Source: a virus
UHGV virus genome: UHGV-0120180
Direction: 5' to 3' (one strand)
DNA length: 11,186 nt
The position numbers are program-made. How positions within the stretch are numbered: the first letter of the stretch is position 1; each line of letters opens with the position of its first letter. Below are positions 9,001 through 11,186 of this stretch, one piece after another.

Positions 9001-11186
9001 ACAGTGGCAGAAAGTGTGGAAAGAGTTTGTTGAGGACGGAGGTAAAACCGGCTGGTTTAACATGGGTGACCTTGAAGGCCAGCAGAAGGAAATGGATCGC
9101 CTTGTATCGCTGGCGAAGGGAGGATGGAAAGGCCAGAGTATCGGTGCATGGCATTCGTTCCTGAACCTGGTCGAGGATGCCAACGGCGCGGTTGAAAACG
9201 CTCTGCGTCTTTCTGCCTATAAACACGCCCGTGATGCCGGTTTGTCACGCCAGCAGGCGGCATCTCTTGCCAAAAACATGACGGTGAACTTTAACCGTCG
9301 TGGTGAGCAGGGAGCGCTGATGAACTCGCTGTATATGTTTGCCAACGCCAGCATTCAGGGGACCGCAAACCTGGTGAGAACGCTCGGACATCTTAATGGC
9401 GACGGGCCGTTACTGGAGCGCCTTCGCTGGAAGAATCTCAATGTACCGCAGAAAATCGCGCTTGCAGCTGTGGGAGCGGGTTATCTGCTTGGCTCGCTTA
9501 ACCGCAGTGTGGCGGGTGAGGATGATGACGGGGTTAACTGGTACGACAAGGTGCCGTATCATGTGAAAGAGCGTAACCTCGTCATTATGAAATCGATGTT
9601 CGGGGGCAGGGCCGGAGAGTACTGGAGTATTCCTCTGCCTTACGGGTACAACGTTTTCTTCCTGCTCGGGCATACCTCTGAAGGTGTGGCAGCGGGCGAC
9701 CTGACGGCGTCCCGTGCTGCCGGTAATGTTGTCGGTGGTATCCTGGGGGCATTCAGCCCGATTGGCAGTGAGACGTCGGAAACGCTGTCCGGGGCATTGC
9801 TGAAAAATGCAGCACCGACAATTCTGCGTCCGTTTGCGAATCTTGCCATGAACGAAAACTTCATGGGGGCGCAGATTTACCAGGAGAACATGCCGTTTGG
9901 TACACCAAAACCTGACAGCCAGCTGGGAAGACGTTCAACGCCAGAAGCGTACAAGGCGTTTGCATCCTGGCTGAATGCGTTCTCAGGTGGCAGCCAGTAT
10001 CGTCCCGGCGCGGTGGATATCACACCGGAATCGCTGAAATTCTGGATTGACTATATCTCCGGAGGGACAGGGCGCTTCATTTCCAAAACCACGGATGCGG
10101 CGGTGAAATCGCTGCATGGTATTGATATACCGGAACAGCAGGTGCCCTTCCTGGGGAAAATTTCGGGTGAGGTGATGCCGTATGCAGACCAGCAGAAGAT
10201 GTACGACCGGATGACAGAGGTTGCGCAGTATCACGCAGAGCTGAAGAGTCTGACCGGTGCAGAAAGAACGGCGTTCATTGACGAGAACAACGGAAAATTG
10301 TTGATGAACGGGCTTATGCAGGATACCCGGAAGAGACTGAAGGATTTGCGCAAACAGCGCGATGCCATTTATGCCGACAGTTCTCTCAGTCTGGCGCAGC
10401 AGGCGGCGATGGTGAAATCGGTAGAGCGGGATATGAAGGTTGCCGTGGATCGCTTTAACCGCGAGTACAACAAAAAAGTGGGAGTGGATTAACAGAAATG
10501 GCCCCGTACGGAAGTGCGGGGCTGATTAAGAAATAAACACACATTAACCTGTAATAACCGGAGCTATTAACATATAGTCAGAAAGAGTATTTCATGTGAG
10601 ACAGAGAGCCGATTTATGTTTAATGAAGAAAAAGTTGCGTAAATGGCAGCGTATTTGCTGAAAAAACATGGCGGATCTATGCGTTTCATTAAGCTGATGT
10701 ATCTCTCTGACCGCAAAGCAATGGAGTTGTATGGTTTTCCCATTAGTGGTGATCATTATTTCTCTATGAACAAAGGACCCGTTTTATCGCAGACATATTC
10801 TTTGGTTAAGGATGGAAGCGAAAACGAGTACAGTCCGTGGGAATCATGGATATCTGATGTAGCGGATCATAAGGTTGAAATGTGGCGTACATTTTCTTCT
10901 GTTGATGAGCTGGGGGAGTTATCGCCCGCAGAAATAGAGTCAATGGACATAATTTTTGGTCAATATGGAGGTTGGGATGCGTTCAGGCTTTGTGATGAAA
11001 CTCACAGAATTTGCGGTGAGTGGCGCGATCCGCATGGTTCATCAATTCCAATCAGCCTTAAGGATATATTTATTGCTCTTGGAAAGTCGCCAGAAGCAGC
11101 AACAGTAATGGCGAATAGGTAAGCGACTCGTCAGAACCGTATTGATATTTACTGAGAGCTCAGATCAACTTTCCAGGGCAACAGAT

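Follow-up and report, generated by a model that had tools for sequence, protein, structure and literature searches.

A phage-borne Panacea antitoxin gene beside a giant polyvalent protein gene is probably the eroded, toxin-less remnant of a known PanA-PanT cassette

The stretch of DNA analyzed here, called the window throughout, comprises 11,186 nucleotides of the virus genome UHGV-0120180. The following features were recognized at the locus under study.

5597-10492, + strand: ORF of a giant polyvalent protein, 5'-truncated, with partial LPD5, LPD1, MuF_C and LPD38 (Pfam)
10500-10523, + strand: GC-rich hairpin with a 10-bp stem and a GGAA loop, no T-tract (RNA fold)
10616-10642, + strand: former panA codons 1-8 (MFNEEKVA) followed by TAA at 10640-10642 (translation, homolog alignment)
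10643-11122, + strand: panA remnant ORF, 159 aa, Panacea domain (PF13274 match)
10691-10699, + strand: single copy of the 9-nt unit AAGCTGATG, encoding Lys-Leu-Met (allele comparison)
11119-11186, - strand: right (tnpC-proximal) end of the IS66-family element ISCro1 (identity to known copies)

ORF calling on the window gave an ATG-started ORF of 159 aa at 10643-11122 on the + strand. Its assignment to the Panacea (DUF4065) family, made in a first-pass annotation of this DNA, was borne out by a profile search: the protein matches Pfam PF13274 SocA_Panacea (E=1.9e-19, 71.1 bits; cut-off 25.7), with residues 16-127 covering positions 2-112 of the 113 profile positions, and the curated threshold is exceeded. 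In NCBI annotation, 18 complete E. coli genomes have the same gene under the name “Panacea domain-containing protein.” The ORF is an incomplete gene, as homologs start 9 codons earlier, at the position of the ATG at 10616 (MFNEEKVAQMAAYLL), and share the N terminus MFxExKxAQMAAYLL (alignments A1 and A4). The 159 residues correspond to residues 10-170 of a 186-aa ancestral PanA less 3 internal residues. At the nucleotide level the ORF is 95.7% identical to its intact counterpart in the sibling prophage L019, and window positions 10500-11118 are 100% identical to a toxin-less allele found in UPEC-245U and others. Judged by its sequence, the ORF is a genuine Panacea-domain antitoxin gene and the damaged remnant of a known two-gene toxin-antitoxin cassette. 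The full N terminus, the complete core helices and the C-terminal helix of a whole antitoxin are not preserved in it, and the co-oriented toxin gene that adjoins panA in the orthologous loci L019-L023 is missing from the window.

Only 64 nt remain 3' of the ORF stop codon, with no co-oriented start among them, just as had been noted at first reading. These 64 nt and the panA stop codon itself are all ISCro1 sequence. The end of the element at 11119 begins with GTAAGCG, which we take to be the typical start of IS66-family ends, and 11149-11186 holds the last codons and the stop of an IS66 transposase on the minus strand, i.e., the ISCro1 terminal sequence is present together with the adjoining 3' end of tnpC. 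A 72-nt query was placed 5235 times in 1647 E. coli genomes, at sites annotated as ISCro1 transposase, and the window end is 100% identical to ISCro1 copies over 68-72 nt; the orientation of the element and the gene order tnpC/tnpB/tnpA were taken from the copy in ETEC H10407. Furthermore, PF13817 (DDE_Tnp_IS66_C) was found on contigs identical to the window, and the window diverges from PhiR5_2 and UPEC-245U exactly after 11118. In an exact-protein look-up, every contig with the exact window protein ends inside the IS (e.g., JALKND010000050.1 of assembly GCA_035781415.1). The near IS junction was not found in viral contigs, and the predicted far junction was found in neither viral nor metagenome contigs.

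The giant ORF upstream has lost its native start together with ~1,140-1,160 N-terminal codons, the full-length gene product being ~2,790 aa in PhiR5_2, 933W, L003 and L019. Since this truncation is due to a 6.6-kb deletion (junction 5524/5525, by blastn and ORF frames), the surrounding prophage is also degraded. The hairpin at 10500-10523 stands directly 3' of the stop codon of the giant gene (10490-10492) and has a folding energy of -20.5 kcal/mol (z=-5.4; none of 200 shuffles as stable). No plausible + strand ORF was seen in the 150-nt spacer 5' of panA, no site was returned by a sigma-70 promoter scan of 10300-11186, and the window gave no Rfam match at gathering thresholds, the surroundings of the hok/gef gene included. 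Several candidates were set aside. Two minus-strand ORFs considered as hidden partners (10567-10743 and 10592-10756) overlap the conserved 5' end of panA and show no sign of homology or conservation, small + strand ORFs in the spacer likewise show none, and the only “terminator-like” element, at 10634-10650, is a weak 5-bp stem within coding sequence and was disregarded.

The cassette is intact in sibling prophages (L019-L023), where the giant polyvalent protein gene is followed by PanA (186 aa), a 133-aa partner and the convergent ibrB/ibrA/antA. The position and the integration site (ynfF side) are those of the window. The partner starts 5 nt past the panA stop codon; in L019, panA occupies 8435-8995 and the partner gene 9001-9402. 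The early suggestion that a partner lies just past the window is thus correct for these siblings and fails for the window itself, where an IS66 element lies beyond 11122 and the siblings of its own allele are toxin-less. Direct repeats in L019 (8195-8341 and 9542-9689) bracket the panAT cassette, and the repeated unit, found on both sides of the cassette in the intact siblings, is made up of the hairpin and the ~100 nt that end the giant gene. A profile of the partner led to 34 informative genomic loci, and in 33 of them a co-oriented PanA gene directly precedes the partner. The pair was also present in all seven phage records inspected and in the prophage L008, an E. coli P2-like prophage in which a related intact PanAT (PanA 69% identical) is located between gpA and the portal gene. 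The same PanA clade with a 133-aa partner occurs, in the absence of a giant gene, in lambdoid, P2-like, Pseudomonas, Klebsiella, Yersinia, Vibrio and Helicobacter phages and in ~33 bacterial genomes.

The 133-aa partner is predicted to fold like MazF/PemK. For the AF2 model of the partner P0158 (pLDDT 92.9), the top 50 PDB matches in Foldseek are all MazF/PemK, with TM values of 0.43-0.68 and a best E of 6.5e-3, which is weak, and the fold agrees with the HHpred result in PMC8832971. Searches of the partner against Pfam at E<=10 gave noise only, and PDB sequence searches with a single partner and with the partner profile yielded nothing meaningful, so the relation to MazF/PemK was recognized only by fold comparison. 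A His/Asp/Cys motif of its own is conserved in the partner family. No PADLOC model matched PanA, the partner or the giant protein. The partner profile also matches Pantoea septica LMG 5345, Salinivibrio socompensis S35 and strain 2016-Iso4, in all of which PanA immediately precedes the partner, and PanA|T6 pairs are listed for these three and for P. moraviensis in Dataset S1 of Kurata et al. (PMC8832971). The partner would therefore belong to toxin cluster T6, a link that is made by shared genomes and not by direct comparison with WP_083201923.1. Taken with these matches, the window gene is best classed as a member of an already known PanAT family (T6). The locus had been proposed to define an uncharacterized module, and this did not hold: cluster T6 has a validated representative in the Pseudomonas moraviensis pair PanA WP_083354365.1 / PanT WP_083201923.1, in which PanT is an experimentally validated translation inhibitor that is bound and neutralized by PanA (Kurata et al. 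2022, PMC8832971).

The window allele carries three lesions, which were mapped on the AF2 model of a full-length PanA homolog (pLDDT 92.4). The first is a CAA>TAA nonsense change at panA codon 9 (window 10640-10642), a conserved Gln9 in homologs. All five toxin-less alleles (window, L001, L003, L061 and L062) have TAA here, whereas CAA is found in each of the five intact modules and also in 933W, O104:H4, cM8a and the P2-like L008. Because codon 9 has mutated to TAA, the ATG at 10643 is really Met10, and 10616-10642 now forms an 8-codon leader ORF that ends directly 5' of this ATG. The second is the contraction of a 9-nt repeat, which removes 3 aa from the conserved core helix alpha2 (FxKLMKLLYLSDR); the repeat unit is present once in the window, twice in intact alleles and three times in one remnant. 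The combination of TAA and a single KLM is seen in 5/5 toxin-less alleles and 0/5 intact modules, and CAA with two KLM in 5/5 intact modules. The third is the ISCro1 insertion, by which the last 16 panA codons have been lost; the last ORF codon, AGG, is a gene/IS hybrid, and the TAA stop is supplied by the IS. All three sites are in confidently modeled helices, namely alpha1 (residues 4-18), alpha2 (residues 24-42, pLDDT 96-98) and the C-terminal helix (residues 161-184), two thirds of which is taken from the window PanA by the IS truncation. The window PanA remnant is thus eroded and probably non-functional. The panA ORF is still open over 159-174 codons. Its dN/dS against the intact allele is 0.21, which rests on 11 substitutions possibly older than the loss of the toxin, and given so few substitutions this value is uninformative on selection after that loss.

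In PhiR5_2 and UPEC-245U the toxin gene is reduced to its first 18 nt (an MMFSPY stub), with ibrB following. Five toxin-less alleles were read, and the toxin gene is gone in all four that are readable past the gene end. From the identical sibling alleles we infer that the toxin gene is absent from this genome beyond the IS. Under this reading, sequence across the IS is predicted to run CATTTATGCG...CTGAGGTAG and then into the MMFSPY stub and ibrB, without a 133-aa ORF; directly beyond ISCro1 (~2.7 kb) one would expect the 8-bp duplication GCGAATAG, then CATTTATGCGCAAAATAATC...CTGAGGTAG, the MMFSPY stub and ibrB. Eighteen complete genomes carry the toxin-less allele, and its cluster, P0001, has 137 members; this fairly wide distribution is compatible with some retained role. 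Remnants of the intact 968-nt cassette were found in 176 of 5426 complete E. coli genomes, none of which has >=80% of the cassette. In most related prophages the gene has been cut down to fragments of 82-330 nt, and in 933W few cassette pieces are left, L0135 being an internally deleted toxin remnant. IS1 and IS3 have been independently inserted in the same toxin-less allele, besides ISCro1. The Stx-type prophages show a natural series of toxin-antitoxin erosion, from intact cassette through toxin-less antitoxin, nonsense and indel mutations and IS insertions to short fragments. Pieces at the right end of these prophages that are unannotated or “hypothetical,” including L0135 of 933W, are explained as pieces of a single ancestral PanA/MazF-like PanT cassette.

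The locus is very probably the eroded remnant of a type II PanA-PanT cassette, in which the toxin has been lost and panA has decayed with three lesions. In 933W-like, Sepvirinae, short-tailed Stx-type prophages, PanAT would be an inserted accessory element that separates the giant gene from the convergent ibrBA, the intact form consisting of a stand-alone 186-aa PanA and then a MazF/PemK-like 133-aa T6 toxin. By homology to the P. moraviensis pair, the toxin is expected to inhibit translation and PanA to neutralize it by direct binding. The toxin gene would have been deleted in the lineage of the window and, with nothing left to neutralize, panA would have decayed through the nonsense codon 9, the 3-codon contraction in alpha2 and, last, ISCro1, an order of events that we infer. 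A shortened protein could arise by re-initiation at ATG 10643, directly after the leader TAA, and it would most likely have no toxin target and be inactive. As a decayed orphan, panA in this lineage should not be counted as a toxin-antitoxin or defense system. The main value of the result lies in the annotation of the gene called “Panacea domain-containing protein” in E. coli genomes; no new toxin, new mechanism or link between Panacea and polyvalent proteins is revealed.

A retained orphan antitoxin, in which the Met10-restart PanA serves as anti-addiction or counter-defense against T6 MazF-like PanT toxins encoded elsewhere, appears unlikely. It would account for a still open 174-codon ORF in the toxin-less allele of the 18 complete genomes and phage PhiR5_2 and is in keeping with the dN/dS of 0.21; the TAA-ATG arrangement allows re-initiation, the intact PanAT of the E. 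coli P2-like prophage (PanA 69% identical) is a possible target, and there is precedent for orphan antitoxins as phage counter-defense, such as the antitoxin-like proteins with which T4-like phages counter DarTG1 (PMC11825919). However, the three lesions are in conserved, confidently modeled helices, the allele has suffered three independent IS insertions (ISCro1, IS1 and IS3), related prophages mostly keep 82-330 nt fragments only, and the window copy has lost two thirds of its C-terminal helix. In at least one PanA, neutralization is carried out by C-terminal helices (Ernits et al. 2023), and PanA antitoxins are described in PMC8832971 as specific to the cognate toxin unless evolved otherwise. 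A version in which the Met10-restart allele of PhiR5_2-like Stx-type prophages has been kept to disarm the T6 PanT of competing elements (e.g., the PanAT cassette at the defense hotspot of P2-like prophages in E. coli) and the window copy has been recently inactivated seems to us quite unlikely.

It is very unlikely that an intact toxin gene follows just past the IS, in a toxin-antitoxin module that is complete apart from the IS disruption. In intact relatives the toxin gene is indeed immediately downstream of panA, but the identity of 10500-11118 is to an allele that continues with the 18-nt toxin stub and then ibrB, TAA with a single KLM marks toxin-less alleles and no intact module (5/5 against 0/5), and a thrice-damaged antitoxin beside a live MazF-like toxin should presumably be counter-selected. 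The initial proposal that PanA neutralizes a toxic domain of the upstream giant polyvalent protein is extremely improbable, for although the two genes adjoin and are co-oriented here and in siblings and polyvalent proteins hold many effector domains (Pfam LPD families), the real partner family has been found, panA does not regularly co-occur with the giant gene (187 of 188 phage records with the giant-gene 3' end are without intact panA), pairs of the same PanA clade with the 133-aa partner occur without any giant gene in every other context examined, a strong hairpin separates the two genes, the cassette is flanked by the duplicated giant-gene 3' end as expected of an inserted accessory cassette, and the giant gene of the window lacks its start and ~1,150 codons.

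The eroded PanA-PanT cassette resembles validated T6 PanA-PanT in its stand-alone Panacea antitoxin, which is ~185 aa long and has M(I)F.E.KVAQ at the N terminus, in the position of the antitoxin gene ahead of the toxin gene (the two overlap or are a few nt apart), and in a ~133-aa toxin with no Pfam/CDD match and a MazF/PemK-like fold. It differs in that only the damaged antitoxin half is present in the window, the toxin being gone there and in the readable siblings that share its mutations. A location in E. coli Stx-type prophages was not found mentioned in the main text of PMC8832971, and a literature search on Panacea/DUF4065 in Stx prophages found no specific report. The predicted MazF/PemK fold of the lost partner, and the inhibition of translation by its validated T6 relative, recall MazEF/PemIK; however, neither Pfam nor PDB sequence searches detected any similarity of the partner to MazF, the partner has its own His/Asp/Cys motif, and the antitoxin is a Panacea protein rather than MazE/PemI. 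SocA, the namesake of PF13274, acts as an adaptor for ClpXP and so favors the breakdown of SocB, whose toxicity is directed at the DnaN clamp. The Panacea/DUF4065 domain is common to Caulobacter SocA and the window PanA, whereas nothing at the window locus suggests a ClpXP-adaptor mechanism or a SocB toxin.

Another Panacea-based toxin-antitoxin pair of E. coli is the validated PanAT of STEC O31, with a membrane-depolarizing PanT of cluster T3 (Kurata et al. 2022, PMC8832971); its toxin is a small membrane peptide and does not have a MazF-like fold, and its PanA is of another clade. Phage orphan antitoxin-like proteins, such as AdfN versus DarTG1, resemble the window gene in being antitoxin homologs on a phage or prophage with no adjoining toxin. 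Such counter-defense proteins are intact and enzymatically active and rescue phage growth (PMC11825919), whereas the window PanA has three disruptive lesions. “MIFSEQKVAQ” had to be added to the N terminus of a PanA in Kurata et al. 2022 (PMC8832971), and this is the same motif as the one cut off in the window.

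The right end of the window carries an eroded, orphaned antitoxin gene. Its 159-aa product was proposed in the first-pass annotation to be a Panacea/DUF4065 protein, and a profile search bears this out: Pfam PF13274 (SocA_Panacea; curated cut-off 25.7 bits) matches over nearly its entire length with 71 bits (E=1.9e-19), which places the domain assignment (Panacea, the domain of PanA antitoxins) far beyond chance. Two features are needed here:

10643-11122, plus strand: panA remnant, ATG start, 159 aa
10691-10699: 9-nt unit AAGCTGATG (Lys-Leu-Met), one copy in the window, two in intact alleles

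A 174-aa gene of phage PhiR5_2 and 18 complete E. coli genomes is 99.9-100% identical up to 11118 only. From 11119 on, the match is instead to ISCro1, an element of the IS66 family, whose tnpC-proximal end the window reproduces with 100% identity; this end sequence is found at 5,235 places across E. coli genomes; the ISCro1 genes lie on the minus strand, with the transposase stop codon at 11149-11151. Because the sequence switches to ISCro1 after 11118, the last 16 panA codons (SIYAQNNLDILLSDLR) have been removed, and the TAA stop of the remnant is supplied by the IS terminal GTAAGCG. The 64 nt after this stop indeed show no start, as had been noted, but all of them are IS sequence. All contigs with exactly the 159-aa product end within the IS, and sequence searches for the junctions gave no match.

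Two further lesions lie within the gene. Most PanA homologues are 183-186 aa long and begin with MFxExKxAQMAAYLL. In this frame the window has an ATG at 10616 and reads MFNEEKVA before it is stopped by TAA at 10640-10642, which replaces the conserved Gln codon CAA of relatives; the ATG at 10643 corresponds to Met10. With a single copy of AAGCTGATG, the conserved helix FxKLMKLLYLSDR is three residues short; within this helix the unit is a slippage-prone micro-repeat. When the lesions were mapped onto an AlphaFold2 model of a full-length homologue (pLDDT 92.4), the nonsense codon severs helix alpha1 (residues 4-18) after residue 9, the 3-aa deletion falls in the centre of alpha2 (residues 24-42, pLDDT 96-98), and the IS truncation takes away about 15 of the 24 residues of the C-terminal helix (161-184). 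The copy number of AAGCTGATG within panA is one in the window, two in intact alleles and O104:H4, and three in strain cM8a; the corresponding repeat positions in other sequences are:

L011 3192-3209
L010 3192-3218

The relatives show what has been lost. In relatives of this PanA clade, panA is followed by a second gene in the same orientation, which is conserved, encodes 133-134 aa and lies at a 4-nt overlap or a gap of a few nucleotides. The pair was found in all seven phage records inspected (lambdoid, Yersinia, Klebsiella, Pseudomonas Citexvirus, Vibrio and Helicobacter phages), in 33 of 34 informative bacterial-genome loci retrieved via the partner alone, and on Mixta-type contigs. Sibling prophages at the same integration site carry it intact at the exact position of the window's panA, in the order giant protein, PanA (186 aa; CAA at codon 9, two KLM units), 5-nt gap, P0158 (the 133-aa partner) and convergent ibrB, ibrA and antA. 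The expectation of an adjacent toxin therefore holds for the ancestral cassette and fails for the window, where the IS end adjoins the remnant. An intact pair (PanA, 186 aa; toxin PanT, 133 aa) also lies at 4974-5944 of an E. coli P2-like prophage (L008), between replication gene A (Phage_GPA) and the portal gene, a variable region that is a hotspot for anti-phage systems; gene calling there had overlooked the toxin ORF and misplaced the panA start.

The partner had no match in Pfam, PADLOC or PDB sequence searches, and its family comprises at least 324 clusters, all without a name. For the AlphaFold2 model of P0158 (pLDDT 92.9), the top 50 PDB matches are all MazF/PemK-family toxins (TM 0.43-0.68), with weak E-values. 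In the T6 cluster of PanA-associated toxins described by Kurata et al. (2022; PMC8832971), the antitoxin gene precedes the toxin gene, with overlaps of -4/-1. The Pseudomonas moraviensis toxin of this cluster, MazF/PemK-like by HHpred, is a toxic translation inhibitor bound and neutralised by its PanA, at whose N terminus 'MIFSEQKVAQ' had to be restored (PMC8832971). Our partner profile matches three T6 genomes of that dataset (Pantoea septica LMG 5345, Salinivibrio socompensis S35 and strain 2016-Iso4), with PanA directly upstream at each match. Since these genomes are shared, the ancestral cassette is assigned to T6, a PanAT class already known and validated in one representative (PMC8832971), and the earlier description of the module as uncharacterised does not stand. 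The cassette resembles the validated pair in its PanA-first order, its short gap or overlap and its predicted MazF/PemK-like toxin, whereas the window holds the antitoxin remnant alone. Across the T6 family (e.g., L019 9001-9402, in an intact sibling), His20, Leu21, His22, Asp55, Cys58, Gly63, His65, His70, Ser72 and Tyr76 are invariant or nearly so; the resulting His/Cys-rich signature, HLH...D..C....G.H....H.S...Y, which may serve in catalysis or metal binding, was matched by none of the sequence searches.

Erosion of the cassette is widespread. Remnants occur in 176 of 5,426 complete E. coli genomes, and at least 80% of the intact cassette in none of them. In PhiR5_2, UPEC-245U and similar genomes the toxin gene is reduced to its first 18 nt (MMFSPY...), with ibrB about 70 nt further on. 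The TAA and the single KLM unit occur in all five toxin-less alleles examined, the window among them, and CAA with two KLM units in 5/5 intact modules. Other Stx-type prophages have eroded differently. O104:H4 phages retain about 120 nt. In phage 933W, panA relics (codons 1-27 and the last ~17 codons) lie in unannotated DNA before L0135. L0135 itself (62 aa, 'hypothetical'; L002 5216-5564, AF125520.1 ~57568-57916) is an in-frame internal-deletion remnant of PanT, which retains the toxin's N-terminal ~13 aa and residues ~84-121 (tblastn E=1.7e-6). In L009 and L063 (E. coli S1-CAM-02-A and JNEC-KY204) the toxin-less allele has also been disrupted independently by an IS3-family element, which truncates panA at its 5' end and removes the giant-gene 3' end, and by IS1 (IS1A) at codon 8; ISCro1 in the window is the third such event.

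The surrounding prophage is itself degraded. The region matches Stx-type prophages of E. coli and Shigella with short tails (933W-like, Sepvirinae) at their late, right end. The native order there, as in strain ML35, runs from the tail-tip fibre through Lom, Hok/Gef and five small genes to a polyvalent protein of ~2,790 aa (LPD5, LPD1, MuF_C, LPD38). In the window this order is interrupted:

5305-5445, plus strand: Hok/Gef-family toxin ORF, 46 aa, between lom and the deletion junction
5524/5525 (region 5502-5600): deletion junction, 6.6 kb absent relative to the UPEC-245U and ML35 prophages

The Hok/Gef call rests on Pfam HOK_GEF on an identical contig and on the annotation of L003 (another toxin-less prophage) and ML35; Rfam models at the gathering threshold found no Sok-like antisense RNA nearby. 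The deletion, shared by at least 24 independent contigs bearing IS-truncated panA, took out the five small genes together with some 1,140-1,160 codons of the giant gene. What is left of the post-hok gene, its first ~8 codons (ATG 5502), now runs out of frame into the giant gene's middle. Because of this, ORF 5597-10492 is a relic that is truncated at the 5' end and lacks its native start, and the prophage is defective.

By homology to the validated T6 pair, the ancestral PanA would have bound and neutralised a MazF-like translation inhibitor, probably as a prophage addiction or abortive-infection module. At present no toxin appears to be left for the panA product to neutralise. The 8-codon leader may be translated, with re-initiation at the adjacent ATG (TAAATG) yielding a truncated protein, which, with three lesions in structured, conserved elements and within a deletion-bearing prophage, is most likely inactive. 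The window is thus an eroded orphan remnant of the known PanAT (T6, MazF-like) family, a case of ordinary gene decay, of use for annotation and low in novelty. It is possible, if disfavoured, that the 174-aa allele is kept as an orphan antitoxin or counter-defence factor, for which there is precedent (PMC11825919) and which the related intact PanAT of the P2-like prophage would favour; the lesions, the repeated IS insertions and the general erosion of the locus argue against it, and for the IS-truncated window copy it is less likely still. Survival of the toxin gene beyond the IS is unlikely because the TAA and single-KLM mutations were met only in toxin-less contexts. That the giant upstream protein is PanA's partner, as had been suggested, is contradicted by co-occurrence, since 187 of 188 phage records with the giant gene have no intact panA and PanA-T6 pairs occur widely where no giant gene exists.

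In the intact siblings, the ~1.35-kb panAT cassette is flanked by a direct repeat of about 147 nt (L019 8195-8341 and 9542-9689, 88-94% identical) made up of the giant gene's final ~100 nt and its hairpin. Such bracketing is the mark of an inserted accessory cassette and points to insertion, or potential excision, of panAT by recombination at the repeat. Directly downstream of the cassette in all siblings, on the opposite strand, lie ibrB (ParB-like) and ibrA (PAPS-reductase/DUF3440). The ibrBA stretches are:

L001 6857-8670
L003 12757-14612
L019 9764-11619

Beyond ibrBA the siblings carry the antirepressor genes antA/antB, and the prophage ends at ynfF.
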